A stretch of 51,331 nt of DNA from the NCBI GenBank assembly GCA_964496825.1, contig CAZCBO010000001.1:1-51331 (forward strand), in the 5' to 3' direction. Both the position numbers and the translations under genes were made by a program. A model generated the notes under the pieces. That model made no database searches. It was not told where the DNA came from and saw only the letters and a program-made list of their open reading frames with translations. Positions 5,154 through 50,993 of this stretch are shown here, piece after piece (the first letter of the stretch is position 1; each line of letters opens with the position of its first letter). The DNA is from an uncultured Acidimicrobiaceae bacterium (GTDB lineage Bacteria; Actinomycetota; Acidimicrobiia; Spongiisociales; UBA5794).

Positions 5154-6305
5154 ATGTCTCATGGCCGGTCCGGACGCCTGGCGTACCTCGACAACCTGAA
5201 GGTCGTTCTCGTCGCCGCGGTGATCGTCGCCCACGCCGCAATGACCTACGGAGCGTTCGGGTCCTGGGTGTACGAGGAGCCTTCCCTGTCCACCCCGGTC
5301 GAGGGAGGGCTGAGCGCCGCCATCGTCCTCGGTGCGATGTTCGGTCTCGGCCTGTTCTATCTCGTGGCCGGGATGCTGACGCCGGGACCGCTGGCTCGCC
5401 GCGGGCCGAGAGGCATGCTCTCGAGCCGGGTGATTCGCCTCGGTGCGCCGCTCCTGGCGTACGTGGTGATCGTCTGGCCGGTGCTGCGGTGGATCACCGA
5501 TCGCGCCACGGGGAACGGAGGGTCGCTGTGGGCGTCACTCCGGAGTCAGTTCTCCGGTGAAGCGGTGTGGTCGCTGGGATCCGGGCCGTTGTGGTTCGTC
5601 GCCGTGCTCCTCGTGCTGACGATCGCCTTCGTGCTGTGGCGGTCGGTTCGTCCCGCCCCGGCGCCTCGAGCCGAACGGCTCGCCCCTCACCACCTTGCCG
5701 TCGCGGCGGGGCTCATTGCCGTCGGCAGCTTCCTGGTCAGGCTTGCCTTCCCCATCGACTCCCAGCAGTTCCTCGACCTCCACGTGTGGATGTGGCCGCA
5801 GGCCGCCGTCCTGTTCGTGCTCGGCGCCGTCGGATTCGAGCGGGGTTGGCTCGGAGCGTTGCCGACAGGGACCCGGAGGGGCTGCGCCTGGGCGGTGATC
5901 GCAGCGGCCATCGCGCTGGCCTCGATGTTCCTCCTCTCCGGCGACGACGGAGCGTTCACCGGGGGCTGGCACTGGGAGGCGCTCGGCCTCGCCGCCGTCG
6001 AGGGAGTGGTCGCGGTCACCGCCTCGCTGCTGGTGCTCGACTGGTTTCGGCGACGGCGCGACCGAGACACCAGGATCAACCGGAGTCTCGGCGGGAGCTC
6101 CTACCCGGCCTTCGTCGTCCAGGGCCCGGTGCTGGTCGGTCTGGCGCTGCTCCTGCGTCCGGCCGACATCCCGGGAGACGTCAAGTTCGTCGCGCTCGCC
6201 GTCGGGGGGGTCGTCGTTTCGTACGCGATCGCAGCCCTGGCGCGAGTCGTGCGGCGCCCATCCCAGCTACTTCCAGTCAGGATCGGGGCGCCGGTGGAGA
6301 TGTAA
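5154..6305 (+). CDS. Acyltransferase family 3 integral membrane protein
   Basis: The N-terminus LDNLKVVLVAAVIVAHA and about 10 hydrophobic helices are typical of acyltransferase_3. ATG 5154 is preferred over the track start GTG 5145 because of GGTGAGGG at 5136-5143. Confidence 0.72.
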   Translation: MSHGRSGRLAYLDNLKVVLVAAVIVAHAAMTYGAFGSWVYEEPSLSTPVEGGLSAAIVLGAMFGLGLFYLVAGMLTPGPLARRGPRGMLSSRVIRLGAPLLAYVVIVWPVLRWITDRATGNGGSLWASLRSQFSGEAVWSLGSGPLWFVAVLLVLTIAFVLWRSVRPAPAPRAERLAPHHLAVAAGLIAVGSFLVRLAFPIDSQQFLDLHVWMWPQAAVLFVLGAVGFERGWLGALPTGTRRGCAWAVIAAAIALASMFLLSGDDGAFTGGWHWEALGLAAVEGVVAVTASLLVLDWFRRRRDRDTRINRSLGGSSYPAFVVQGPVLVGLALLLRPADIPGDVKFVALAVGGVVVSYAIAALARVVRRPSQLLPVRIGAPVEM

Positions 6306-6330
6306 CCGTCGACAGCGGGTTTGAGGACCC

Positions 6331-6752
6331 GTGCGCACAGAAGAGTGGGCCATGGGTGCGAACGGCCGGTTCGAAGAGCTGTACGAGCGACACTTCAGGG
6401 AGATCCTCGCCTACTGCCTCCGCCGCGGCCCGGCCGACGACGGCTGCAACGCGGTCCTCGAGGCGGCGTCGCACCTCAACGCTCGCGACCGGGAGGTGCT
6501 CGACCTCGCCGCCTGGGAGGGCCTTCCCCATCGGGAAATTGCCGAGATCCTGGGGTGTTCGATCGCCGCCGTCGACCAGCGGCTGCACACGTCGAGGTCG
6601 ACGAGATCTCAGGTGCGAGCCACGGAGAGGTGGTATTCCACGACAACACCGGCGAGGAAGGCGACGACTGGATCACCCTCGAACGGAACAACCCCGCCGG
6701 GCAGGAGGCGGTGCGGTTGATCCTCGAGGCGATCGAGGCCGCCAGGGAGTAG
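6331..6752 (+). pseudogene. Decayed ECF sigma-70 paralogue (region 2 largely deleted, probable frameshift at 3' end)
   Basis: FEELYERHFREILAYCLRRG aligns with FRDLYTEHYPAVLGYCLRRA of the intact sigma at 7548..8096. It then jumps straight to region 4 (DREVLDLAAWEGLPHREIAEILGCSIAAVDQRLH), so about 75 aa are missing. A second frame (6321..6752) carries the protein-like tail EVVFHDNTGEEGDDWITLERNNPAGQEAVRLILEAIEAARE. Confidence 0.55.
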
Positions 6753-6810
6753 GCCGGGCGACGCACCACGTCCTAGGGGCACCGTGCGAACGATGCCGGA
6801 CGCGATTGAC

Positions 6811-7551
6811 CTACTCGGTGAGGCTCGCCACGAAGGCAGCCTCGTGTTCGGCCAGGAATCGCCCACAGCGCTCGGTGAACGGGAAGCCTGCGGTGCTCAT
6901 CGGCGAGCTCTGGTCGGGAGCGCAGGCGTCGGCGAAGCCGGCGGGATCCTCCTGGCTCGCAAACGAGCCGAGCCGCAGCTCGACCAGACCGTAGCTGGGG
7001 GTTTCGATCCGGACGATGCGGCCATCCTCGACGACGAACCGCCCCGAGCTCGCATCGAGTCCGAGGGCGTCCGTGGCCGCGATGCGCCATACCCACTCGC
7101 AATTCACCGACCCCGGCGTTCCAGCCGGACTGCACTCCGTATCCATCACGCCATCGAACGGCAGCGACCACTCCATCAAGCCGCGGAAATCGGACACACC
7201 CGCCGCCCCGGGTATCGATGCCTCCGGATCGACGAGAGCGAGCGCACCGGCGACGTCGCCGCGGTTCCACCGCTCGAAGAACTCGGCGACGACGTCGATC
7301 GGTGCCGAGGTGGCAACGTCGCCGGTACCGCGGAGTCCGATCAGCGCTGCGCCCCCGGCCAGGATCACGGCGGCAAACATCGCGGCGACAACGAGCCAGC
7401 GTCGGGCTTCGATCGGTCGTATCACGATGGCCTCGTCGAGAGAGGAGACGTGCTGCCACTCGTCGTGCCCCGCGACGTCGAGATATCGCTCGGGATCGGG
7501 CATCGGGTTGGCAGCCACGAGACGCTCATAGGCACGATCGGTGGCGTTCAC
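6811..7551 (-). CDS. Membrane-anchored NTF2/SnoaL-like protein, putative anti-sigma factor partner
   Basis: ATG overlaps the sigma factor stop (4 nt). Has a single TM helix (WLVVAAMFAAVILAGGAALIGL) followed by VVAEFFERWNRGDVAGA, which is SnoaL-like. No ZAS HxxxCxxC motif is present. Confidence 0.55.
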   Translation of the reverse strand: MNATDRAYERLVAANPMPDPERYLDVAGHDEWQHVSSLDEAIVIRPIEARRWLVVAAMFAAVILAGGAALIGLRGTGDVATSAPIDVVAEFFERWNRGDVAGALALVDPEASIPGAAGVSDFRGLMEWSLPFDGVMDTECSPAGTPGSVNCEWVWRIAATDALGLDASSGRFVVEDGRIVRIETPSYGLVELRLGSFASQEDPAGFADACAPDQSSPMSTAGFPFTERCGRFLAEHEAAFVASLTE

Positions 7552-8096
7552 AACGCTTCTCCTCTCCTCGCCACATCGTGGTGGCTCGTCCGGTCGGCGC
7601 GCGCCAGCTCGCTGCGGAATCGCTGCTTCGCCCTGGTGAGTCGCTTTTCGGCGGCGTGGAGCGAAATGGCAAAGCGCGCCGCGATCTGCGCCGCGCTCAG
7701 CCCCTCCCAGGCCGAGAGCAGCAGGATCTCGCGATCGCTCGGACGAAGCCGTTCCACGGCCTCGATCACCGCGGCATCCTCGGAGCGGCGAAGGATCAGG
7801 GTCTCGGGACCGACCTCACTCGACCCGCCGAGCCGCCGCACCCTCTCGACCAGCCTCGTGCGCCGCCGCAGCGACCGCCGGTGGTTGGCGATGGTCCTGG
7901 CGGCCACGGCGTACAGCCAGGGCAGCACGAGGTCACCCTCGGGGAGACCGCTCCGCCGCCGCCACGCCACGGCAAACACCTCCGATGCGAGATCCGGGGC
8001 GCTGTCCCGGTGCGCTCTGCGCAGGCAGTAGCCGAGCACCGCCGGATAGTGCTCGGTATAGAGGTCGCGAAACGACTCGTGCTCGTCGCCGGACAT
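7548..8096 (-). CDS. ECF-type RNA polymerase sigma-70 factor
   Basis: Start is CAT at 8094-8096. Region 2 is present (PDLASEVFAVAWRR..LPWLYAVAARTIANHRR), as is region 4 (DREILLLSAWEGLSAAQIAARFAISLHAAEKRLTRAKQRF). The longer track ORF (to 10160) is an artefact. Confidence 0.87.
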   Translation of the reverse strand: MSGDEHESFRDLYTEHYPAVLGYCLRRAHRDSAPDLASEVFAVAWRRRSGLPEGDLVLPWLYAVAARTIANHRRSLRRRTRLVERVRRLGGSSEVGPETLILRRSEDAAVIEAVERLRPSDREILLLSAWEGLSAAQIAARFAISLHAAEKRLTRAKQRFRSELARADRTSHHDVARRGEAL

Positions 8097-22311: not shown

Positions 22312-23439
22312 TCAGGCAACGGCACCGCTCGACCGGAGCTCGGCGACCTCGTCGGCGGAGAATCCGGTCTCGGCGAGGATCTCGTCGGTGTTCGCCCCCG
22401 GCTCGGGCGCCGTGCCGGGCTCGCCGGGAGCATCGTCATCGAATCGGGGCGCCGGGGCCGGCAGCGGATGGCCGGCGTGGATGTCGAACACCCCTCGCCG
22501 CGCGTTCCCCGGGTGTGCGGGTGCCTCGTCCATGCCCAGTACCGGCGTGACACAGGCGTCGGTGCCGGCGAAGACCGACTCCCACTCGTCCCGGGTCCTG
22601 CTCGCAAAGACCTCAGCGAACCGCCGCCGCAGCTCGGGCCAGCCGCTCACATCGAGACGATCGGGCAGCTCGGCACCCGCCAGACCGAGGCCGGCGAGCA
22701 GCTCGTCGTAGAACTGGGGCTCGAGGGCACCGACCGCCATCTGCTCGTCGTCGCTGGTCCGGTAGACCGTGTAGAAGGGCGCACCGCCGTCGAGGAGATT
22801 CGAAGCCCGTGCGACGTCCCAGAGCCCGATCCCGAGCATCTCGTAGAACGGCGTCATCAGCGACGCCGCACCGTCGATCATGGCCGCCTCGACGACCCGG
22901 CCCCCGGCCCGGTCCCGATCGAGGAGCGCGGCGAGGACACCGGCCACCAGGTACAGCGATCCCCCGCCGTAGTCACCGATCAGGTTGAGCGGTGGGACCG
23001 ACCGGTCGGCGGTGCCGATGGCGTCAAGGGCCCCGGACAGCCCGATGTAGTTGATATCGTGACCGGCCATGTGCGCCAGCGGGCCGGTGCGACCCCATCC
23101 GGTCATTCGTCCATAGACGAGGCGAGCGTTGACCGTCCGGCACTCGTCGGGCCCGACCCCGAGCCGCTCGGCGACGCCGGGGCGGAACCCCTCGATGAGG
23201 GCATCGGCGCGCTCGACGAGGCGGAGCACGGTTGCCGGCCCGTCGGGATGCTTGAGATCGACGGCGATCGACCGCTTTCCCCTCCCGACGGCCCGCACCA
23301 TGACGTCGGGATACGCCCGTTCGCCGACCCGGTCGACGAGGATCACATCGGCGCCCATGCCGGCGAGGAGCATCCCGGCGAAGGGCACCGGGCCGAGTCC
23401 GGCCAGCTCGACGATCGTGACGTCGTCGAGCGGCCTCAC
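22312..23439 (-). CDS. Family III CoA-transferase (CaiB/BaiF; alpha-methylacyl-CoA racemase-like)
   Basis: Has VTIVELAGLGPVPFAGMLLAGMGADVILVDR and GHDINYIGLSGAL. The start overlaps the sbcC stop (ATGA). Confidence 0.88.
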   Translation of the reverse strand: MRPLDDVTIVELAGLGPVPFAGMLLAGMGADVILVDRVGERAYPDVMVRAVGRGKRSIAVDLKHPDGPATVLRLVERADALIEGFRPGVAERLGVGPDECRTVNARLVYGRMTGWGRTGPLAHMAGHDINYIGLSGALDAIGTADRSVPPLNLIGDYGGGSLYLVAGVLAALLDRDRAGGRVVEAAMIDGAASLMTPFYEMLGIGLWDVARASNLLDGGAPFYTVYRTSDDEQMAVGALEPQFYDELLAGLGLAGAELPDRLDVSGWPELRRRFAEVFASRTRDEWESVFAGTDACVTPVLGMDEAPAHPGNARRGVFDIHAGHPLPAPAPRFDDDAPGEPGTAPEPGANTDEILAETGFSADEVAELRSSGAVA

Positions 23440-25943
23440 CCGCTCAACACCCTGGTGTCGCCCGTCGTCGGGCTCCGGTCGAGCTCGATGAGGTCCTCGA
23501 TCCGATGCCGCAGCTCGGGCACGTGGCTCACCACCACGACCAACCGGTTCCCGTCCTCGCTGACCAGCGACTCGATGCCGCTCATGGCCAGGTCGAGGTG
23601 CTCGGGATCGAGCGTCCCGAATCCCTCGTCGAGGAAGAAGGCGTCGAGGCGTCCGCCGCCGCGCGCCACGATCTCGGCGAGCGCCAGCGCCAACGCCAGC
23701 GAGGCCAGGAACGTCTCCCCTCCCGAGAGGCTGTCGGCCTTTCGGATCGCATCCGCCGCCGTCAGATCGACGATCTCGAAGGCACCGTCCTCGGTGAACC
23801 GATAGCGGCCGTTCGTCAGCAGCTGGAAGTGCTCGCTTCCCAGCTCGGCGAGCCGTCGTCGTTCGTCGTCGAGGAGGAAGCGCACGAACCGAGCGTCGGT
23901 GAGATCGGCTGCGAGCACCTTATGGGTCTGCATCGCGGCGACGTGGGCATCGCGGCGGGCCACCTGCTCTGCCATACCCTCGAGCTGCTGCTCCGCTCTT
24001 TCCACCTCCTCACGCAAAACCGCGACCCTCGACCGCAGGCCGCCAAGCGCCTCGTCGAAGGATCCGGTCACGCCGAGCTCGTCCATGGTCGCGGCGAGGG
24101 TCTTGGCCTGGTCCTCGGCAGCCGACGTCGCCTCGTCGCGGCGCTCCGTGGCTTCGCGGACCAGCCGATCCGCCAGCGTCCGCAGGGTATCGGCCGCCTC
24201 GGCGATCGAGGCGGCGTCGTCCCCGAAGGCCGGCGCATCGGCGATGCGGGAGGCGACACCCGTCAGCGCAACCCGCAGATCGCCGAGCCGCTTTGCGGCG
24301 GCTTGCTCGGCCGCGATGGCGGCATCGTTGTCCGCAATCGCCCGGTCTCGTGCCGCCGTCGCCGCATCGAGGGCGGCGCCGGCGGCTACCAGTTCCTCGC
24401 GCATTGCGGTGAGCACCGGCTCGACCTCCTCCGACCCGAGGAGCTCGACGAGCGCGGTCCGCGTATCGGCTGCCGCCTCGGTGGCCTGGGTGATGCGGTC
24501 TTCGACCTCGGCGAGGCTGTCGGCGGCGTCGGCGGCGCGCCGCTCCGCCTCGCGCAGGGCGGTTCGCGCCGACTCGAGGGAGCCCGACGCCGTCGTGTGG
24601 GCCTCCTCGGCTTCGCTTCGGTCGCGGCGTGCCGAATCCAGCGCGGTGCGCGCCTGCTCGAGATCGATGCCGGCGGTGATGGGTGGAACGGGATCGACCG
24701 TCTGCTCGCATACCGGGCAGCGGTCTCCTTCGCGCAGCTCCCGGCGCAGGGCAGACGCCATGTCGGCGTGGGTCGCTTCGTGCAGTGACTCCTCCGCTGC
24801 TGCGAGGGATTGCGCCGTCTCCTCGGCGCGTTGCGCGGCGGTTCGTGCGTCGCGTTCGGCGAGCGTCACGCGATCGGCCTGGCCGGCTACCTCGGCGGTC
24901 GCCTGCTGCAACCGATCCCTGCTGCGCGCCAGGGCGGCGTCGGCTTCCCGAACGGCGGCATCTCGCTCGTCGCCTGCGGCCATCAGGGCGGTCGCGGCGG
25001 CGACCTGGTCGCGGATCGCCGCCGCGGCCGCCGAGCGCTCGTCGGCTTCCTTGAGCTGGTGCCGCGCCTGCTCGAGCCGCTCCGCCGTCGTCGCACGCTG
25101 CTCCGCAGCGGATCGGGCCGCGGCGAGCGTCTGCTCGAGATCGGTCTCGCTGGGAAACGCCTCGAGTGCCCCTCGCAGCTCGGACAGCTGCTTCTCGGCC
25201 GCGCTCGCCTCCTCTTCGGTGGTTGCGATCGCGGTCGTGAGCTCCTTGACCTTCGGCTCCGCCTCCTCCAGCACCGAAAGCCGGTCGGCATCGGCGGCGA
25301 GGGCGGATCTTCTCGCCTCGGTCTCCACCTCGAGCTGGGCGAGGTGCTGCACCGAGACCGTGGCCTTCTCCGCCTCGACCTCGGCTTCGCGGGCTCGTTC
25401 CTTGGCCAGGGCACGCATGCGGTCGATACGGTCGAGGCCGAAGACACCCTTGAGCACCTTGTCGCGCTCGGCGGGCGGAGCAGTGAGGAATTCTGCGAAT
25501 CGTCCCTGGGCGAGCAGGACCGAGCGGCCGAAGGCATCGAAGTCGAGCCCGAGCAGCTCGGCGATCCTGCTCGTGACGTCGGCGTCGCCGGTGATCTGCT
25601 CCAGCTTCTCGGCGCCTTCGGAGTCGTCCTTCAACCGGTAGAGGGCGTGGTCGCCTGCGCCCTTGCGCCGCAGCATCCGCTGGGCCTCCCACAGCTCGCC
25701 GTCGACCTCGAAGCGGAAGGCGACCGCTCCGTGGTCGGCGCGCTGGTGAATGAGGGCCTTGGTGTTGCGGCCCAGCGATGCCGTACGCCCGTAGAGCGCA
25801 AAGGCGATGGCGTCGAGGATGGTCGACTTGCCGCTGCCGTTCGGGCCGACGATGCCGACCAGGCGCCGGTCGCGAAAGTCGAAGCCGGCTTCGTCGCCGA
25901 AGTAGGAGCGGAAGTTCCGCAGCCTGAGGTCAACCGGGCGCAC
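23436..25943 (-). CDS. sbcC: SbcC/Rad50-family ATPase (835 aa)
   Basis: Has Walker A GPNGSGKST, a long Ala/Glu/Arg coiled coil with a CPVC zinc hook, the signature LSGGETF, and Walker B FFLDEGFGTLD. The GTG start is at 25943. Confidence 0.9.
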   Translation of the reverse strand: MRPVDLRLRNFRSYFGDEAGFDFRDRRLVGIVGPNGSGKSTILDAIAFALYGRTASLGRNTKALIHQRADHGAVAFRFEVDGELWEAQRMLRRKGAGDHALYRLKDDSEGAEKLEQITGDADVTSRIAELLGLDFDAFGRSVLLAQGRFAEFLTAPPAERDKVLKGVFGLDRIDRMRALAKERAREAEVEAEKATVSVQHLAQLEVETEARRSALAADADRLSVLEEAEPKVKELTTAIATTEEEASAAEKQLSELRGALEAFPSETDLEQTLAAARSAAEQRATTAERLEQARHQLKEADERSAAAAAIRDQVAAATALMAAGDERDAAVREADAALARSRDRLQQATAEVAGQADRVTLAERDARTAAQRAEETAQSLAAAEESLHEATHADMASALRRELREGDRCPVCEQTVDPVPPITAGIDLEQARTALDSARRDRSEAEEAHTTASGSLESARTALREAERRAADAADSLAEVEDRITQATEAAADTRTALVELLGSEEVEPVLTAMREELVAAGAALDAATAARDRAIADNDAAIAAEQAAAKRLGDLRVALTGVASRIADAPAFGDDAASIAEAADTLRTLADRLVREATERRDEATSAAEDQAKTLAATMDELGVTGSFDEALGGLRSRVAVLREEVERAEQQLEGMAEQVARRDAHVAAMQTHKVLAADLTDARFVRFLLDDERRRLAELGSEHFQLLTNGRYRFTEDGAFEIVDLTAADAIRKADSLSGGETFLASLALALALAEIVARGGGRLDAFFLDEGFGTLDPEHLDLAMSGIESLVSEDGNRLVVVVSHVPELRHRIEDLIELDRSPTTGDTRVLSG

Positions 25944-27099
25944 CAGTTACCTCCTCCAGCACGGATGTGAAGGCTTCGAGCAGTGCGGCGGACGGCTCGG
26001 TCTCATGGGCCTCGACGTAGTAGTCGTGATACTGCTCGACCAGAGGGCGGTGCGCGGCGACGGGACGCTCCTGCTCGGGTCTCGGGTAGTCGGGCCTCAC
26101 CTTGACCAGGTAGTCGAACTCATCGAAGGCTCGCGCGGCGAGCCCGGGATCGGGCCCCGCGGTCTCCACGGTGAGGTCGAGATAGGCGTCGTGGATGCCG
26201 TCCATGCCGAGGAGCTCATCCCACGGACCGCGGGGTCGCAGCAGCCGCCGCCCGCCGCCGAGCGGCACCGACCGCACCGTCGCCGGCAGGCCGGGCTCGG
26301 CCTCGACGACCACCACCCGCTTCTGCTCGCCGGCCTCACCGAAGTCGAGCTCGAGGAGCGAGCCGGCGTACTCGGCGGGGACCTTGGCACCGGGCACCGG
26401 CTGGGGCGCATGGATGTGGCCGAGCGCCACGTACTGGGGACCCGGTGGGATGGCCTCTGCGGTGGCGGTGTAGGCCTCGCCCATGTGGAGCTCCCGCTCA
26501 CCGCGGGGAGCCCCGTGGCCGTGGACCTTGACGCCGCCGACGAGGAAGTGGGCGACGAGGAAGGTGACGGCTTCGGTGCCGGCCAGCGTCGAGGCGTGAG
26601 CGCTGTAGGCCTCGGAGATGGCACGCAGGCGGTCGGCATACTTCTTGTAGTGCTCCTCCGGGGGCTCCCAGACCTCGAAGCTCTTCCCCTGCCGCAGGAA
26701 CGGGAAGGCCGAGACGACGGCCCGCCCCGCCCGCGTCTCGAGATCGAGGACGCCGCCCTCGTCCGGCCGTTTGATCCCGCCGACCAGGTGCACGTTGACG
26801 CTGCGCAGGAACGGCGCCAGGGCATCGAAGAACCCCGGCGAGTCGTGGTTGCCGGCGATGACGACGACCGGCCTCCTCCCGCCGTCGCTCAGCCCGACGA
26901 GCCCGTCGAGAGCGATGTTGAGCGCCTCGACCGGCGGCAGCGGCCGGTCGAAGAGGTCCCCCGAGTGGAGGACGAGATCGACCTCCTCGGAAGCGCCGAT
27001 GTCCACGACTTCGGCGATCACCTCGCGGTACTCGTCGGAGCGGTCGTAGCGCCCGAGCTTCTTGCCGACGTGCCAGTCCGAGGTGTGCAGGACCCTCAC
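25930..27099 (-). CDS. sbcD: SbcD/Mre11-family nuclease
   Basis: Has the phosphoesterase motifs HTSDWHVG, SGDLFD, AGNHDS and LGHIH. GTG at 27099 overlaps the herA-like stop (GTGA). Its 3' end overlaps the sbcC start by 14 nt. Confidence 0.9.
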   Translation of the reverse strand: MRVLHTSDWHVGKKLGRYDRSDEYREVIAEVVDIGASEEVDLVLHSGDLFDRPLPPVEALNIALDGLVGLSDGGRRPVVVIAGNHDSPGFFDALAPFLRSVNVHLVGGIKRPDEGGVLDLETRAGRAVVSAFPFLRQGKSFEVWEPPEEHYKKYADRLRAISEAYSAHASTLAGTEAVTFLVAHFLVGGVKVHGHGAPRGERELHMGEAYTATAEAIPPGPQYVALGHIHAPQPVPGAKVPAEYAGSLLELDFGEAGEQKRVVVVEAEPGLPATVRSVPLGGGRRLLRPRGPWDELLGMDGIHDAYLDLTVETAGPDPGLAARAFDEFDYLVKVRPDYPRPEQERPVAAHRPLVEQYHDYYVEAHETEPSAALLEAFTSVLEEVTGAPG

Positions 27100-28844
27100 A
27101 ACCCCTCGAAGGGATCGGTGCCCGAGGTGTCGACCTCCTCCTTGCGCGTCGCCCACGGCGGGAAGGGGAAGTCGACGACGATCGGCACCGGGATCGAGGG
27201 CTGGGACAACACCATCGTGCCGGGCTTGAGGAGACGTGCCCGCGCCCGGGTCGAGGGCAGCATCCAGCCGTACTCGGCGCGCTCGGCCTCGGCGGCGTCG
27301 AGCCGGCCCGCTACCCGGATCGCCGCGTTCTCCATCACCTCGGGGGCCACCTTCGACGCCGTCTGCTGGGCCCCGACCAGCAACACGCCGAGGCTCCTCC
27401 CCCGCTGGGCGATGTCGATCAGCATCTCCTTGAGCGGGCTCGAGCCATCCCGCGGCGCGTACTTGTTCATCTCGTCGAGCACGACCACCGACAGCGGAAG
27501 GCGCTGACCGGTTTGCTCCTTCTCGTCGAAGGTCTCTGCCAGCAGCGCGCCGACGACGAAGCGCTGGCCGAGATCGTGGAGGGATTGGATCCCGACCACC
27601 GTCACCTGTGCCGCGGCCCGGTCGATGCGCCTGCTCTCCCCCGCCCTGATCATCTGGCCGAGCCGGTTCTCCGCCGCGTGGAGCCGGCGGAGGAAGGCCG
27701 AGACGGTGCCGCCCTGCACCCTGCCCGTCCATCGCGGATCGGGCTCTCCCTCCTCGGGATCGATGTACTCGGCGATGCCCTCGATCAGCGTCCGCAGATC
27801 GACGATCACCCGCTCGCCCTTGTGCGGCACGATCGGCTGGCGGGGGTCGTCGACATCGGCAGGGTCACGGAGCACGACCGCGCCCGGCATGCCGTCGACG
27901 TCGATGGCGTAGCGACGGAGCTGGGCGCGCACCCGCTCCTCGATGAACGACAGCTGGTTGCGGAAGTCGGAGGCATCGGTGAAGAGGAACCGGAGCAGCC
28001 CCTCATCGATGAACTCGCGCGGGGTCCAGGCGAAGGCTTGCACGCCTTCCTGCCGCCCGCCGGTGTCGGGGACGAGCACGTCGCCGCTGCGGGGCCGTGG
28101 CGGCGCCCAGAACGCCACCGACGGGAAGGGCGCCGGCTCGACCCCGAGCCGTTCCCACTTGGCCGCATCATCGGGAGTGAAGGCATTGTTGGGCATGTCG
28201 AGCCACAGCAGGTCCTCGCCCTTGACGTTGAAGACGAGGATTCGGAGATTGGCCGCACCCTCGCCGAGCACATCGGGACGGGCCGAGAGGAGCCGCAGGA
28301 AGAACAGGGCAAAGGAGGTCTTGGTGGCGACCCCGGAGATCCCCGAGATCGACATGTGCCCGCCCTTGCGCCCATCGAAGAAGTCGAGGTCGACCGACAC
28401 CGGGTCGCCGTCGCGTCCGATGCCGGCGGGAAGGGGCCGTGCCATCTCGTCGACATAGAGCGCCTTGTCCCGCTCCTCGGCGTGGGCCCGTTCCACCACT
28501 TCGCCCGGGTCCGCCGACACCCACAGCTCGGGGTCGACGCGGGTCACCTGGACCCGCGCCGAGCGGACCTTGGCACCGGGGAGGATGCCCTCGGCGGCGA
28601 TCCGGTGCGTGTCGGACTCGTACTGGGCGCCCTCGTAGACCGCCTCGGCCTCGGTGACGACGCCGTAGGTGCGCACCTCGCCGTACTTCGGAACTTGCGT
28701 CCGCACGACGACGAGGTCGTCGAGCTGGAGGTACTCGTCGTCGTCGAGGACGACGCGGAACTCGCTCGTCGAAGTGTGCTGCGTGCCGAGAACACGCCCC
28801 ACGCCGTGTTTGCCCCCCACCCCCATCTCCCCGTTCTCACTCAT
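27096..28844 (-). CDS. herA: HerA-like (DUF87/FtsK-HerA superfamily) ATPase
   Basis: Has an N-terminal barrel-like segment (GRVLGTQHTSTSEFRVVLDDDEYLQLDDLVVVRT), a P-loop region (HMSISGISGVATKTS), Walker B (LSVVVLDEMNKYAP) and QRGRSLGVLLVGAQQTASKV (Arg-finger/sensor region typical of HerA). ATG at 28844 overlaps the upstream stop. Confidence 0.72.
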   Translation of the reverse strand: MSENGEMGVGGKHGVGRVLGTQHTSTSEFRVVLDDDEYLQLDDLVVVRTQVPKYGEVRTYGVVTEAEAVYEGAQYESDTHRIAAEGILPGAKVRSARVQVTRVDPELWVSADPGEVVERAHAEERDKALYVDEMARPLPAGIGRDGDPVSVDLDFFDGRKGGHMSISGISGVATKTSFALFFLRLLSARPDVLGEGAANLRILVFNVKGEDLLWLDMPNNAFTPDDAAKWERLGVEPAPFPSVAFWAPPRPRSGDVLVPDTGGRQEGVQAFAWTPREFIDEGLLRFLFTDASDFRNQLSFIEERVRAQLRRYAIDVDGMPGAVVLRDPADVDDPRQPIVPHKGERVIVDLRTLIEGIAEYIDPEEGEPDPRWTGRVQGGTVSAFLRRLHAAENRLGQMIRAGESRRIDRAAAQVTVVGIQSLHDLGQRFVVGALLAETFDEKEQTGQRLPLSVVVLDEMNKYAPRDGSSPLKEMLIDIAQRGRSLGVLLVGAQQTASKVAPEVMENAAIRVAGRLDAAEAERAEYGWMLPSTRARARLLKPGTMVLSQPSIPVPIVVDFPFPPWATRKEEVDTSGTDPFEGL

Positions 28845-29791
28845 GTCAGCACTCCACCCGCAGTGGCCGCTCGCAGCGCACGGTAGACGAAACCCGGGTC
28901 GCCCATGCGTCTCCTCAGGTCGCGTTCCAGGGCCGCGATCGGGACCAGGTTCTGGGGCGCCCGCGGATCGAGGTGCTGCTCCGAAGCCACCGCGGGCAGC
29001 AGCGCGGTGACGCGGTCGGCCATCCGTTTCGCGGTTCCGAGGTCGATGTGGCTGGAGACCTCGGCGCGGGCGATGCCCGACCAGGCGTGGCCGTGGGCGA
29101 TGTCGGCGAGGCGGAAGTACCACGAGTAGCGCGGGTAGGCCCCGCCGGCGCCGATGAGGAACAGCGGGGTGCGTTCGCCGGCGCGCAGGGCACCGACGAT
29201 GCCGGTGCGCTGGTCGCTGAGGTACGGACGACGGTGGGTCTTGATGAAGCCCACCTTCTCGGTCGCCGAGAGATCGTTGATCGGACCATCGGCGACGACG
29301 AACACCCCGCTCCTGGCCAGCTCCTCCGAGAGGTTGGCCTCGGCCTTGCGCATCTGGCCGTGGAGGGACTGGATGAGCCCCGAGGAGTCGGTTCCGGGCA
29401 CCGACTCGGTGCGATAGGACAGCTCCGCCGAGATGGCCGGCATCGGTGCCGCCTTCCCGTCGCCGAAGATCGCCACACGATCGACCATCGCGTGGGTCAC
29501 CTCCGAGCGGGGCACGGTGCGATCCCACCGTACCGAGCCGACGGCGTAGGTCCCGCAGATCCCCGACACCGGCGGTCCATTGCCGTCTTCCAGCGTCAGC
29601 CGGGCGTCGACGCGGCGAACCCCGTCGACGAAGGCGACCGCGTCGACCCCGTCGTCGCTCCCGGCGATCGCGTCCCAGCCGCCGGGAACCTCGACGGTCT
29701 CGTCGACCCGGTCCTCGTCCGCCAGCGATTCATCGGTTTGCAGCGGGCTTCCATACTCGGGAGCCCATCCCTCGACGTGGATGCGCGCCAT
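28841..29791 (-). CDS. NurA-like nuclease candidate (RNase H-like fold inferred)
   Basis: The call rests on its position immediately upstream of, and coupled to, the HerA-like gene. It also has NurA-like pattern elements: VAFVDGVRR (the DG[S] start motif), VGFIKTHRR (sK-type strand), YSWYFRL and DPRAPQNLVPIAALERDLRRRMG. ATG 29791 is preferred. The 29792..29917 extension has low third-position GC. Confidence 0.5.
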   Translation of the reverse strand: MARIHVEGWAPEYGSPLQTDESLADEDRVDETVEVPGGWDAIAGSDDGVDAVAFVDGVRRVDARLTLEDGNGPPVSGICGTYAVGSVRWDRTVPRSEVTHAMVDRVAIFGDGKAAPMPAISAELSYRTESVPGTDSSGLIQSLHGQMRKAEANLSEELARSGVFVVADGPINDLSATEKVGFIKTHRRPYLSDQRTGIVGALRAGERTPLFLIGAGGAYPRYSWYFRLADIAHGHAWSGIARAEVSSHIDLGTAKRMADRVTALLPAVASEQHLDPRAPQNLVPIAALERDLRRRMGDPGFVYRALRAATAGGVLT

Positions 29792-29928
29792 GGGGCGCGA
29801 TGGTACCGAGGGGGTGTGACAGGTTCGCGTCACGAGGGGTCGGCCGTATTCCCACCCAGCCACACGGTAGAAGGCCCGATCAGGGTCGGAGGTCCCTACC
29901 GCCCGTCGGCGTGACACGCAACCATCAA

Positions 29929-29943
29929 ATCATCTATTATCGA
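29929..29943 (-). promoter_or_regulatory. AT-rich 15-nt motif, copy 3 (TCGATAATAGATGAT on minus strand)
   Basis: Differs by one mismatch from copies 1 and 2 and is in inverted orientation. It lies in the 280-bp divergent region, 137 nt from the nurA-like start and 128 nt from the ABC permease start. Confidence 0.55.
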
Positions 29944-30071
29944 TTATTGAGGCTCCTGCGCATAGCACCGTCGGACGTCGGAGGCGCGATGCCCAGAAGG
30001 GCATGGTTGGACGGCACCGGATCTCGGGGGGATGGCCCGCTCAGCCCGATCCCTGGAGGTGAGGCTGGCTG

Positions 30072-30941
30072 ATGGATCTCTTCAGCGACGCCATAGTCAT
30101 CGGGTTGACCGAGCAGGCGCCGCTCGTTCTGGCCACGATCGGGTTCGCCCTCCTCTATCGCCTCACCGGTCTCATCAACGTCGCCTACTCCGAGACCATC
30201 ACGCTGGGTGCCTACCTCGGGATGTGGGTCAATACGACCTTCGGGTTCAACTTCTACGCCACGCTCATTCCCGCGGGGATCCTCGCCGGGCTGTTGAGCG
30301 TCGGAACCTACTTCCTCATCTTCCGGCCGGCGCGCAATCGCGGCGTCGGGGTGCTCGAGCTCATCATCATTTCCTTCGGCCTTTCGATCTTCCTCCGCTA
30401 CGGGCTCCAGTTCGTCTTCGGCTACGTCGTCCGCTTCTACGACGTGCCGCCACCGGACACGATCCGCGTGCTGGGCGTCGGGGTGTCGACGTTCCGGCTG
30501 ACCGCCTTCGCCAGCGTGATCGCCCTCGCCCTGCTGCTCTGGTGGGTCATCCAGCGCACCGGCCTCGGCCTCCAGATCAGGGCGCTGGCCAGCGACGAGG
30601 ATCTCGCCCAGGCGAGCGGAATCAGGCCGCTGATGGTGACCACGCTGATCTGGTTCATCGCCGGTGTCGCCGGCGGGCTGGCCGGGGCGTTCTACGGCGT
30701 CGGATCCTCGGTCAGGCCCTGGCTGGGATGGGAGGAGTTTCTCTTCATCTTGCTGATCACCCTGGTCGCCTCCCAGAGCATCCGCAGCATCATCCTGGTC
30801 GGGCTCGGCACCGGTGTGGTGCTGGCCGGCTTGACGCTCGAGACCGGCGAGCCGCTCTACTCGCAGCTCTTCCTGATCGTGGCCTTCATGCTCATCTTGA
30901 AGTGGCGCGGGAATCCGGCCGCCGAAGCGGGGAAGGTCTAA
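30072..30941 (+). CDS. Branched-chain amino acid type (HAAT) ABC transporter permease, LivH-like
   Basis: Hydrophobic 289-aa protein with the LivH-type N-terminus (IVIGLTEQAPLVLATIGFALLYRLTGLINVAY). Confidence 0.85.
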   Translation: MDLFSDAIVIGLTEQAPLVLATIGFALLYRLTGLINVAYSETITLGAYLGMWVNTTFGFNFYATLIPAGILAGLLSVGTYFLIFRPARNRGVGVLELIIISFGLSIFLRYGLQFVFGYVVRFYDVPPPDTIRVLGVGVSTFRLTAFASVIALALLLWWVIQRTGLGLQIRALASDEDLAQASGIRPLMVTTLIWFIAGVAGGLAGAFYGVGSSVRPWLGWEEFLFILLITLVASQSIRSIILVGLGTGVVLAGLTLETGEPLYSQLFLIVAFMLILKWRGNPAAEAGKV

Positions 30942-47851: not shown

Positions 47852-49294
47852 TCAGGTGATCTCGGCAGCCCGCCGATCGAGGAACTCGTAGATCTCGGCG
47901 CGATCGAAGCCGGGAATCGCCTCGAACGGCATCGCCGCCAGCACGTGACTCTTCGGCCGCACCGAGGTCCACTGATGCCCGTCCCAACGTTCGGCGACAG
48001 CAGGTGCGGGTACGCAACACGCGCCGTCGGGACAGTACGAGACGGTGTGACGAGTCGTATCCCACCCGCGGAACCAGCGGGCGTCCTCGAACCGCACCCC
48101 CGTGGTGATTGCCCGCGGGGGCCCTGCCTCCTCCTCGACGAAGGTCGCGCACCAGAAGGTTCCCTCCGCGGTGTCGGTGTACTGGTAGTGGATGGTGTAG
48201 CGAGAGTCCGAGGTGAAGGCCTGGCGGCTCGCCCACTCGCGGCACAGCCGCTCTCCCTCGATCCCGCCCGCCGTGTTGCGCGGGAACGGCACCCCGTCGT
48301 TCTCGTAGGCCTTCCAGACGATCCCGCCCGCATCGGAGCGGACGAAGTGGGTCTCGAGGCCGAGATGCTCGGTGGCGAGATTGGTGAAGCGGTGGCCCGC
48401 CATCTCATAGGACACGTTGAAGTGGTCCTTGAGATCCTCCACCGACAGGTTGCGTTGCTCCTTGGCCTCGGCGAGGAACGGCACGCCGACACTCTCCGGG
48501 ATCAGCACCGCCCCGGCGAAGTAGTTGGTCTCCACGCGCTGGCGGAGGAACTCGGCGAAGTCGGCGGGCTCGTCATGACCGAGGGCGAAGTGCCCCAGGG
48601 TCTGGAGGACCACCGAGCGCACCAGCCCCGGCTCGAAGTCGTCACGGCCGGGGACGTAGATGCGGCGGTTGGCCATGTCCGTGATCGAACGCACCGTGGC
48701 CGGCACCTCGTGGGTTCGGAGCACCTTGAACCCGAAGTGGGCGGCAAGGGCGTTGAGGTCACCCTTCGACATCCCCCCGGCGCTCCGATCACCGAGTGCG
48801 GCCACGGACTCGGCGGCGAGGGCTTCGATCTCTGCGAAGTAATTGCCGCGTGCTCGCATCTCGGCGCGCAGCTCTGCATTGACGGTCCGCGCCGCGTTGG
48901 TGCTGAACGGCTCCGCCTCCCGCCGGCTCTGTAGCGCCTCATAGAGCCGGACCACATGCTCGAGAGCCACGTCGGGGAGCCGCGCCGAGGCTTTGAGGTA
49001 CGGCAGCCCGAGCTCCCGGTAGGCCGGCTCCTCCTGGTAGCGCTCGATGGCGACCTCGAGCTCGGCTCGTCGCGTCGGCGGCTCTGCGGTGAGCAGTTCA
49101 CCGGCCGAGACGTCGAGCGCGGCGGCGAGATCGTTGATGAGACCGAGGCTGGGCTCTCGCTTCCCGTTCTCCACCATGGAGAGGAATGGTGCCGGCCTGC
49201 CGACGATCGCACCCACGTCGTCGAGGGTCAGGCGGCGCCGCTTGCGGAAGTGGCGTACCCGCCGGCCCAGCACCAGGGGATCGATCTGCTCCAT
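47852..49294 (-). CDS. XRE-HTH / ImmA-IrrE-type metallopeptidase-domain regulator, RamB/PrpR-like (short-chain fatty acyl-CoA regulator family)
   Basis: Has an N-terminal HTH (LGRRVRHFRKRRRLTLDDVGAIVG..FLSMVENGKREPS) and a central HFALGH (HExxH-like position). The long C-terminal domain has a conserved Cys pattern (YCPDGACC). It is divergent from aceB-aceA, as in mycobacterial and corynebacterial ramB loci. Confidence 0.75.
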   Translation of the reverse strand: MEQIDPLVLGRRVRHFRKRRRLTLDDVGAIVGRPAPFLSMVENGKREPSLGLINDLAAALDVSAGELLTAEPPTRRAELEVAIERYQEEPAYRELGLPYLKASARLPDVALEHVVRLYEALQSRREAEPFSTNAARTVNAELRAEMRARGNYFAEIEALAAESVAALGDRSAGGMSKGDLNALAAHFGFKVLRTHEVPATVRSITDMANRRIYVPGRDDFEPGLVRSVVLQTLGHFALGHDEPADFAEFLRQRVETNYFAGAVLIPESVGVPFLAEAKEQRNLSVEDLKDHFNVSYEMAGHRFTNLATEHLGLETHFVRSDAGGIVWKAYENDGVPFPRNTAGGIEGERLCREWASRQAFTSDSRYTIHYQYTDTAEGTFWCATFVEEEAGPPRAITTGVRFEDARWFRGWDTTRHTVSYCPDGACCVPAPAVAERWDGHQWTSVRPKSHVLAAMPFEAIPGFDRAEIYEFLDRRAAEIT

Positions 49295-49406
49295 AATCAG
49301 AGGCTACTTGTTTGACAGCGAGAAGATCAATCATTCTTTCTTAGCAAGGAAGTTGATTTCGTGCCGCGAGTGAACCAACACTGCCATCCGGACCAGGGAG
49401 GTGCCA

Positions 49407-50993
49407 ATGATCGAAATTGCCGGTGCGGGAGGCGACCGCTACGACGAGATCCTCACCGAGGAGGCGCTGGCCTTCGTCGCCGACGTGCACCGCCGGTTCG
49501 ACCCCGCCCGGCGCCGGCTCCTCGCCGCCCGGACCGAGCGCCAGGGTCGCATCGACGGCGGCGAGGACCCCGACTTCCTCCTCGAGACCGAATCGATCCG
49601 CACGGGGGACTGGGTCGTCGCCGCACCGCCACCGGACCTCGCCGATCGACGCTGCGAGATCACCGGACCGACGGACCGCAAGATGCTCATCAACGCCCTC
49701 AACTCGGGGGCAAGGGTCTTCATGGCCGACTTCGAGGACTCCAATTCACCCACCTGGGACAACATGGTGCGGGGCCAGGTCAACCTGTGCGACGCCATTC
49801 GCCGCACCATCGACTTCGACGCAGGCAACGGAAAGGCTTACCGCCTGAACGACGACGTGGCGACGCTGATGGTGCGGCCCCGCGGCTGGCACCTCGACGA
49901 GCGTCACCTCCTGGTCGACGGTGCACCCGTATCGGCGAGCCTGTTCGACTTCGGACTCTTCTTCTTCCACAACGCAGCCGAGCTGCTGGCCCGCGGCTCG
50001 GGGCCGTACTTCTATCTCCCCAAATTGGAGAGCCATCTCGAGGCGCGGCTGTGGAACGACGTGTTCGTGCACGCCCAAGACCAGCTCGGCATCCCGGTCG
50101 GGACCATCAGGGCAACCGTGCTCATCGAGACCATCCTCGCCGCCTTCGAGATGGATGAGATCCTCCACGAGCTGCGGGAGCATTCGGCGGGACTCAATGC
50201 CGGGCGCTGGGATTACATCTTCTCGGTCATCAAGAAGTTCAGGAACCGACCCGACTTCACGCTGCCCGACCGTGCTCAGATCACGATGACGGTCCCGTTC
50301 ATGCGCGCCTACACCGAACTGCTCGTCGCGATCTGTCACCACCGTGGCGCTCATGCCATGGGGGGCATGGCGGCGTTCATTCCCTCCCGTCGTGACCCGG
50401 AGATCAACGAGATCGCCCTCGCCAAGGTGCGCGAGGACAAGGCACGCGAGTCGAGCGACGGCTGCGACGGCACGTGGGTGGCTCATCCCGACCTGGTTCC
50501 CGTTGCCACCGAGGTGTTCACCGAGGTGCTGGGCGACGCCCCCAACCAGATAGAACGGCTGCGAGACGACGTCCACGTCGCCGCCAAGGAGCTGCTCGAC
50601 ACCGAAGTCACCGGTGGTGCGGTCACTGAAGCCGGGGTGCGCACCAACGTCGACGTGGCCATCCAGTACCTGGCCTCGTGGCTGCGCGGCAACGGCGCCG
50701 CCGCCATCTACAACCTGATGGAGGATGCGGCGACCGCAGAGATCTCGCGATCCCAGGTGTGGCAATGGGTGCACAACGGGGTCGCCACGGACGAAGGCGA
50801 GGCCGTTACCGAGGCCTTGGTCCGGACGATCGCCGATGAAGAGACCGCACGCCTCCGGGCCCAGCTCGGCGATGCCGAGTACGAGACCGGCCGCTTCGAG
50901 GAGGCGAGGGCGCTGTTCGAGACCGTCGCCCTCGCCCCCGATTTCCCCGAGTTCTTGACGCTGCCCGGTTACGCGATCCTCGAGGAGGGATGA
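49407..50993 (+). CDS. aceB: Malate synthase A
   Basis: AGGGAGG lies at 49395-49401 and the ATG at 49407. Has [40 protein letters not shown] and [12 protein letters not shown]. The 528-aa size fits the A form. Confidence 0.92.

Follow-up and report, generated by a model that had tools for sequence, protein, structure and literature searches.

Why does an actinobacterium carry nurA-, herA-, sbcD- and sbcC-like genes in one chain, an association better known from archaea? The case considered here is a 51,331-nucleotide stretch, called the window below, from an uncultured Acidimicrobiaceae bacterium (GenBank assembly GCA_964496825.1, contig CAZCBO010000001.1, positions 1 to 51,331). An initial annotation of this DNA had offered two explanations, an archaeal-type HerA–NurA–Mre11–Rad50 machine for double-strand-break processing and a nuclease/ATPase module with a role in defence, and had placed the host among the actinobacteria, to which it belongs as a member of the class Acidimicrobiia (Actinomycetota). 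Our analysis points to a third explanation, which we regard as probable: a chromosomal housekeeping operon for damage-inducible processing and resection of DNA ends and forks, made of a bacterial NurA–HerA pair and a bacterial SbcCD. The four-gene cluster is of a kind already described in bacteria and not a new kind of system.

The gene chain nurA–herA–sbcD–sbcC was recovered on the minus strand with all four open reading frames (ORFs) at the coordinates given by the initial annotation (Table 1), and reading of the junctions agreed with the overlaps that it had described. The first two genes share an ATGA (sequence ...ACATGAGT) and herA and sbcD a GTGA (sequence ...TTGTGAGG), while sbcD and sbcC overlap by 14 nucleotides (nt), with a GGAGGAGG ribosome-binding site ~8 nt 5' of the sbcC GTG. 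The four genes are coupled as claimed, but the chain does not end with them: it continues past sbcC into a CoA-transferase gene, the GTG start of which overlaps the sbcC stop codon in another GTGA. GC content at the third codon position is 0.86–0.91 in the called genes and falls to 0.48–0.69 in the longer upstream extensions of the ORFs, which supports the shorter starts. The longer starts (nurA 29917, herA 29528, sbcD 27732) were ruled out by this codon-position signal, by conserved N-termini and by matching gene calls; one 58,417-bp NCBI contig has gene calls on record for the identical set of products, of 316, 582, 389 and 835 amino acids (aa). Terminator-like hairpins within sbcC occurred at chance level only.

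Table 1. Positions in the window of the operon genes, the adjoining CoA-transferase gene and the predicted promoter
Feature	Position	Strand	Description
nurA	28841-29791	-	316 aa, ATG start; bacterial-type NurA nuclease
herA	27096-28844	-	582 aa, ATG start; bacterial HerA (HepA/DrHerA type) hexameric translocase ATPase
sbcD	25930-27099	-	389 aa, GTG start; Mre11-family nuclease, bacterial SbcD type
sbcC	23436-25943	-	835 aa, GTG start; Rad50-family ABC ATPase, bacterial SbcC type
Family III CoA-transferase	22312-23439	-	375 aa, GTG start; PF02515 at 5e-69
PafBC-type (RecA-NDp) promoter, predicted	29800-29821	-	tGTC -26 element and TACCAT -10 element (29800-29805)

The first two proteins of the chain escape the common family models. 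The initial annotation had suggested hidden Markov model (HMM) searches with PF09376 for NurA and PF01935 for HerA, but neither these nor any other Pfam or NCBIfam family matched the respective protein at E ≤ 0.01, and their identification required comparison with solved structures. In phmmer searches, the herA product matched Deinococcus radiodurans HerA (DrHerA; 7f6d_B) with E 7e-123 across residues 4–575. The two are 44% identical in the multiple alignment, and all ATPase residues are invariant: K175/T176 of the unusual Walker A motif GVATKTS, the acidic D211 and the Walker B pair D457/E458 align with K175/T176, D220 and D487/E488 of DrHerA, the roles of which have been described (PMC9960219). 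A HAS-barrel occupies the N-terminus. Judged by this alignment, homology of the 582-aa protein to DrHerA extends over the full length, and the herA-like gene deserves the name that it was given.

The nurA product matched DrNurA (7f6d_H) at 2.8e-25 and the Thermotoga protein TM1739 (1zup) at 1.1e-8. Its AlphaFold2 model (predicted local distance difference test score, pLDDT, 83.6) retrieved the same two structures with Foldseek, DrNurA (7f6d_G) with E 9e-20 and a template modelling (TM) score of 0.73 and TM1739 (1zup), to which a 'ribonuclease H-like motif fold' is attributed, with TM scores of 0.64–0.71; endonuclease V (EndoV) came next. The catalytic D56 as well as K184 and R277 correspond to D53, K201 and R309 of DrNurA, any of which, when mutated, costs the enzyme its nuclease activity (PMC9960219), and a tryptophan near the N-terminus (W9, within MARIHVEGW) is conserved. 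As far as alignment and structural model can tell, the 316-aa protein is a bacterial NurA with an RNase H-like fold. Of the two marks by which the initial annotation had wanted a NurA to be recognised, the fold was found and the HMM match was not.

As for family size and spread, 1.84 billion cluster representatives were searched exhaustively and 353 of them matched at E ≤ 1e-30, the labelled ones coming from Euzebya, Deinococcus, Rokuibacteriota and Dehalococcoidia. Homologues of NurA and HerA number in the thousands, the named top matches being metagenome-assembled genomes (MAGs) of Acidimicrobiia, and earlier work had recorded homologues from Actinobacteria, Cyanobacteria, Firmicutes and Deinococcus-Thermus (PMC8708640). 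Public records list the proteins as 'hypothetical protein', 'ATP-binding protein' or 'HerA-like ATPase', an annotation gap that affects thousands of homologues.

The other two proteins were readily recognised. SbcD scored 146.1 bits against TIGR00619 sbcd (cut-off 77.65) and matched PF00149 (Metallophos); its calcineurin-like phosphoesterase motifs are complete, with D8/H10, GDLFD at 47–51 (D48), GNHD at 83–86 (N84/H85), H184 and GHIH at 227–230 (H228/H230), and its best solved relatives are structures of E. coli SbcD (4lty/6s6v, ~5e-23). SbcC contains the Pfam domains AAA_23 and SMC_N and shows the split ABC ATPase heads on either side of a coiled coil, with the Walker A motif (33–41), the Q-loop (Q146), a CPVC zinc hook (409–412), the LSGGE signature (739–743), Walker B (FLDEGF, 770–775) and the H-loop (H807), and has E. 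coli SbcC (6s6v_C, 2.4e-42) as its best solved relative. With this, the intactness of the catalytic motifs, which the initial annotation had noted as apparent, is borne out by motif and residue mapping of all four proteins.

These comparisons bear directly on the idea that an actinobacterium acquired an archaeal HerA–NurA–Mre11–Rad50 cassette by horizontal transfer. The same four functions are clustered in thermophilic archaea, according to literature cited in PMC2288612 and PMC4663267, and an SbcC of 835 aa is near archaeal Rad50 in length, a feature that had been read as pointing to the archaeal protein. Length is not diagnostic, however: the annotated coordinates of herA-linked SbcC homologues correspond to ~1006 aa in Sphaerospermopsis and ~1117 aa in Streptomyces. 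No archaeal HerA or NurA structure was matched at E ≤ 10, whereas the bacterial ones were matched at the E values given above, and Foldseek ranked only DrNurA and TM1739 ahead of EndoV. On NCBIfam models, SbcD scored 146–165 bits with bacterial and at most 61 bits with archaeal Mre11 models, and SbcC 259 bits with the bacterial and at most 132 bits with archaeal Rad50 models. The two proteins thus score two to three times higher against bacterial SbcCD models or E. coli SbcCD than against archaeal Mre11/Rad50; they are nearest to E. coli SbcCD and to Mre11/Rad50 of T. maritima, with the archaeal proteins far behind, and by these scores they are of ordinary bacterial type. The GC content and codon bias of the operon are native, and the locus is ancestral to the class. 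We therefore consider an archaeal origin extremely improbable. HerA and NurA fall into the bacterial clade of which D. radiodurans and Thermotoga are typical, and the 'archaeal-type' character ascribed to the proteins does not hold; as all four are of bacterial type, the cluster is 'archaeal-style' in organisation only.

Comparison with known systems leads to the same placement. The damage-responsive herA–mre11–rad50–nurA operon of thermophilic archaea encodes four analogous activities, a ring translocase, an RNase H-like 5'–3' nuclease, an Mre11-family nuclease and a Rad50-family ATPase, but in a different gene order and with proteins so remote that their bacterial-clade homologues in the window lie beyond phmmer detection. 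Also, Sulfolobus depends on HerA and NurA for viability (PMC4351679), whereas mutants of bacteria survive. The closest characterised proteins are NurA–HerA of D. radiodurans (PDB 7F6D; PMC9960219) and NurA–HepA of T. thermophilus (PMC5448004), members of the same families (NurA identity ~29–33%, HerA identity as given above), which share with the window the GVATKTS Walker A, the Walker B DE, the Asp/Lys/Arg residues of NurA and a nurA directly 5' of herA. Unlike that stand-alone pair, nurA–herA of the window is translationally coupled to sbcD–sbcC and follows a promoter of actinobacterial PafBC type. A four-gene cluster in the identical order, nurA–hepA–sbcD–sbcC, is known from Oceanithermus profundus, a member of Deinococcota and not of Actinomycetota: Blesa et al. 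(2017; PMC5448004) noted genes for SbcD and SbcC downstream of its HerA homologue, mentioning the cluster in passing, without survey, regulation or biochemistry. SbcCD of E. coli and mycobacteria shares its nuclease and ABC-ATPase motifs and its zinc hook with that of the window, where SbcC is shorter (835 versus 1048 aa). The sbcCD genes of E. coli form a unit of two and are not known to have a HerA or NurA partner.

A scan with one genome per species confirmed 208 relatives; the 80 best loci, from Acidimicrobiia, were kept and searched with the proteins of the window using tblastn. sbcD lies directly 3' of herA in all 80 of these close loci, sbcC follows in each of the 74 loci whose contig extends that far, and of the 78 loci evaluable for nurA, 77 have it directly 5' of herA. 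All operon genes are on the same strand, and the tblastn coordinates of herA and sbcD abut. Identity to the window declines from HerA (75–92%) through SbcD (54–86%) and NurA (47–87%) to SbcC (38–67%). The exception at nurA is locus L054 (1–3045), where a 282-aa ORF, HAD/acid-phosphatase-like by eye, takes the nurA position and no nurA was found within 10 kb. Three loci (L056, L070 and L076, at ~6200–8000) have 0.4–0.8 kb of extra sequence between nurA and herA. In six others (L003, L004, L005, L022, L034 and L042), the MAG labels read Kiloniellales, Acidobacteria, Gemmatimonadales or Gammaproteobacteria, yet HerA is 78–89% identical to that of the window; these contigs are probably mis-binned or mislabelled.

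Wider conservation was assessed with a metagenome scan using a seed alignment headed by DrHerA, which gave 80 distant loci with HerA 39–49% identical to that of the window, 61 of them evaluable. In 43 of the 61 (~70%), sbcD starts at most 600 nt downstream of herA, and in 4 more it is nearby; the remaining 14 have no sbcD, among them the loci most similar to DrHerA, which carry nurA–herA only. Two permutations recur, nurA–herA–sbcD–sbcC and herA–sbcD–sbcC–nurA, the latter in 13 loci. The second order, in the form herA–sbcD–(sbcC)–nurA, is seen on a linear plasmid of Streptomyces sp. BB1-1-1 and in Nonomuraea gerenzanensis, in the cluster of which SbcC was not detected by tblastn; the first is found on a conjugative plasmid of the cyanobacterium Sphaerospermopsis kisseleviana. 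The statement that bacterial sbcCD is normally a stand-alone pair holds for model organisms only, as linkage to sbcCD is the majority state with this HerA family.

The locus nurA–herA–sbcD–sbcC is thus a conserved core locus of Acidimicrobiia, ancestral to the class. That the four genes form a co-conserved unit, as the initial annotation had supposed, is confirmed by an order kept in essentially all 80 Acidimicrobiia loci and by the share of distant herA loci with sbcD. Their co-conservation argues that the adjacency is not accidental and makes a joint role in end processing the best reading. What has emerged is largely a housekeeping locus of wide conservation whose SbcCD is of the ordinary bacterial type, the outcome that the initial annotation had named as speaking against its own two proposals.

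This pattern also bears on the second of those proposals, in which a HerA-scaffolded nuclease with SbcC as an SMC-like sensor would destroy invading linear DNA of phages or plasmids. HerA hexamers do scaffold Sir2 and DUF4297 effectors (PMC11472057, PMC11291478), and those antiphage systems likewise pair a hexameric ATPase of the HerA superfamily with a nuclease or other effector; however, only the C-terminal ATPase stretch of our HerA aligns with them (8xau, E 0.0035), the window holds no Sir2 or DUF4297 effector, and the genes occupy a core chromosomal locus and not a defence island. Among PADLOC models, SbcC had generic matches to the LmuB, mad3 and PbeC ATPases, but the HerA matches were partial (24.8–27 bits) and NurA had none. 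A search of a phage collection gave remote HerA-like matches only and no close phage homologue. Some homologous clusters are plasmid-borne, and one of them does sit in different company: in locus L162 (NZ_CP134205.1, 1–14348), the herA–sbcD–sbcC–nurA cluster of the 451-kb linear Streptomyces plasmid has as neighbours genes annotated as TIGR02680, TIGR02678 and DUF2397 family and one for an ImmA/IrrE-family metallopeptidase. We take the TIGR02680, TIGR02678 and DUF2397 genes to be Wadjet-like JetABC genes. The surroundings of L162 are a defence or mobile-element neighbourhood, unlike those of the window, where the locus is fixed and syntenic, with class-wide HerA identity foreign to patchy defence islands, where the neighbours belong to core metabolism without an integrase or transposase and the GC content equals that of the flanks, and where the predicted promoter is of a DNA-damage type. 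A defence role, which found no support in the window, seems very improbable to us.

Upstream of nurA, positions 29800–29821 of the minus strand read TGTCACACCCCCTCGGTACCAT, with the TACCAT -10 hexamer ending 8 nt before the nurA ATG. The 22-nt motif fits the consensus of PafBC promoters, including the invariant GTC and the -10 hexamer. In these promoters, tGTCgg(N10)tA(N3)T, a -26 element is combined with a canonical -10 and no -35, and RNA polymerase is engaged through 'sigma adaptation' (PMC8635444). No Shine-Dalgarno sequence is present between the hexamer and the ATG, and the 8-nt distance predicts a leaderless mRNA. The pattern GTC-N12-TAnnnT has its sole match in the window at this site, which by itself is not significant (4.6 expected by chance). 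Its recurrence is more telling: of 73 related loci, 70 have a PafBC-type motif ending 5–8 nt ahead of the start of nurA, while its intervening positions vary freely and the background expectation is 0.003 per 60 nt, and of 77 matches to motif plus start codon plus ORF in ~1.2 Mb of related DNA, 73 are nurA starts. In locus L024, a PafBC-type motif at 925–946 (+; TGTCGTCCGGGCGCCGTAGAGT) lies 7 nt before a 140-aa uncharacterised ORF (MEVIVPVDVPLVGDERHKNW...), a possible candidate member of the same regulon in Acidimicrobiia. A LexA/SOS box was sought by reading the sequence upstream of nurA, and none was seen.

In the distant loci, most of them high in GC, there are 20 matches to motif plus ORF, of which 14 lie directly before herA (10), sbcD (3) or nurA (1). 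Motifs of their own, 4–9 nt before the start, are carried by sbcD or herA in L081, L108 and L144 and by ten loci in which herA comes first (L107, L114, L119, L122, L131, L135, L139, L140, L149 and L158). Motifs at sbcD and herA in such loci indicate that the association with a damage promoter is not confined to Acidimicrobiia and that such a promoter can lie inside the cluster. In Mycobacterium smegmatis, sbcD is a gene of the PafBC regulon (PMC11348249); no link to HerA or NurA was found in the mycobacterial literature, and our literature search returned no paper linking PafBC to Acidimicrobiia, HerA or NurA. Together, these features suggest that the operon may be a leaderless, damage-inducible member of the LexA-independent response of actinobacteria.

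A common promoter could, on the other hand, be all that unites the genes. NurA–HerA and SbcCD might act independently and be adjacent because both need one damage-inducible promoter, with SbcCD working, for example, at hairpins and converging forks and NurA–HerA in another transaction, such as the limitation of recombination or the processing of incoming or outgoing DNA. Such independence would agree with the separate PafBC-like promoters of herA and sbcD in several distant loci and with the nurA–herA pairs of Deinococcus and Thermus, which have no adjoining sbcCD (loci L083–L091; PMC5448004); moreover, HepA of Thermus has an effect on both transformation and DNA donation (PMC5448004), and D. 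radiodurans gains resistance on loss of its pair, as detailed below. Co-regulation alone, however, hardly explains why all four genes stay together even where a permutation moves nurA beyond sbcC, and the translational coupling of herA and sbcD through their GTGA in the window, matched by abutting tblastn coordinates in relatives, likewise argues for a closer relation. A physical interaction of archaeal HerA with Mre11 has been reported (PMC2288612, as cited in PMC4663267). We judge a merely shared regulon to be unlikely.

On the explanation that we prefer, an operon for joint processing of ends and forks, DNA damage, probably sensed as single-stranded DNA by a PafBC-like WYL activator, would turn on the -26/-10 hybrid promoter 5' of nurA and so yield a leaderless polycistronic mRNA. 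The overlapping stop and start codons would couple translation of nurA, herA, sbcD and sbcC, and the coupling could set the stoichiometry of the products. SbcCD would then bind DNA ends or collapsed forks, open hairpins and remove blocked termini, after which a HerA hexamer capped by a NurA dimer (HerA6–NurA2) may thread the duplex, with NurA splitting the strands and degrading mainly the 5' strand, to leave a 3' tail for RecA. For the second part, DrNurA–HerA offers a precedent, as it performs 5'-strand resection dependent on translocation (PMC9960219). The sequences show the protein identities with their intact catalytic residues, the gene order and the promoter motif, the last two together with their conservation; what we infer is induction by damage, a leaderless transcript, cooperation of SbcCD with NurA–HerA, whether physical or functional, and the direction of the effect on repair in vivo.

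Several observations weigh against this scheme. No experiment ties SbcCD to NurA–HerA in any bacterium, and for D. radiodurans the connection is an open question (PMC4663267). Deletion of nurA–herA in D. radiodurans raised resistance to ultraviolet light and mitomycin C ~10-fold (PMC9960219), a gain implying that the bacterial pair may restrain or redirect repair and not simply promote it. The homologous clusters on the cyanobacterial conjugative plasmid and on the linear plasmid of Streptomyces indicate mobility of the module in some lineages. A regular expression served to find the promoter motif, and shared ancestry of the loci explains part of its recurrence; no recA was found in the loci of relatives. 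Finally, SbcC scored 259.3 bits with its top NCBIfam model, TIGR00618 sbcc, under the curated cut-off of 478.5, a shortfall probably due to a short, divergent coiled coil.

The gene that continues the chain, encoding the family III CoA-transferase, is probably a co-transcribed passenger outside the repair module. Only in the closest relatives does it lie directly 3' of sbcC, and on this ground a function as fifth member was ruled out; many other loci have it 1.5–2.6 kb further away on the downstream side, and in 52 of the 80 related loci the available DNA showed no trace of it. Elsewhere in the window, the genes serve core metabolism and transport, including isocitrate/isopropylmalate dehydrogenase, transketolase, subunits of a molybdo-hydroxylase, phosphoenolpyruvate (PEP)-utilising enzymes, a branched-chain amino-acid ABC transporter, nucleoside hydrolase, ribokinase and malate synthase. 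GC content is uniform throughout. Integrases, transposases and defence genes are absent from the 51-kb window, as are a second sbcCD, adnAB and recBCD.

Two features of the surroundings are recorded for their own sake. An AT-rich stretch at 29911–29965, in a genome of 69% GC, contains a sigma-70-like site on the plus strand (GTGACA-18-TATTAT), which probably drives the divergent gene of the branched-chain amino-acid ABC transporter, starting at 30072. Further along, a gene for a regulator with an XRE-type helix-turn-helix (HTH) and an M78/IrrE-like peptidase domain (47852–49303, -) is divergent from the malate synthase gene (49374–50993, +). We presume that this pair resembles the RamB/ScfR-type arrangement at glyoxylate-shunt genes of actinobacteria; it is unrelated to the repair operon.

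What the locus adds to the known bacterial system is the breadth of herA–sbcCD linkage, the two permutations of gene order, the PafBC-type promoter and the gap in NurA and HerA annotation. Biochemical work on bacterial NurA–HerA has been limited to D. radiodurans, in which the pair is separate from SbcCD and its role in vivo has been puzzling, as the mutants are more resistant. Our survey indicates that the stand-alone nurA–herA pair is the minority state and that the four genes travel together in most lineages with this HerA family, the cluster standing behind a PafBC-type damage promoter in high-GC actinobacterial lineages. This provides a concrete and testable model for cooperation of SbcCD and NurA–HerA in bacteria. 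In its strongest form, towards which we lean, if only slightly, NurA–HerA and SbcCD would be one PafBC-induced four-component machine for breaks and collapsed forks in Actinomycetota, and probably in most bacteria with a DrHerA-type HerA; it would represent the genuine equivalent, in bacteria, of archaeal Mre11–Rad50–HerA–NurA and may be the principal route of end resection in Acidimicrobiia. If true, this would settle the D. radiodurans question of whether SbcCD is connected to HerA and NurA and would add a new arm to the LexA-independent damage response of actinobacteria.

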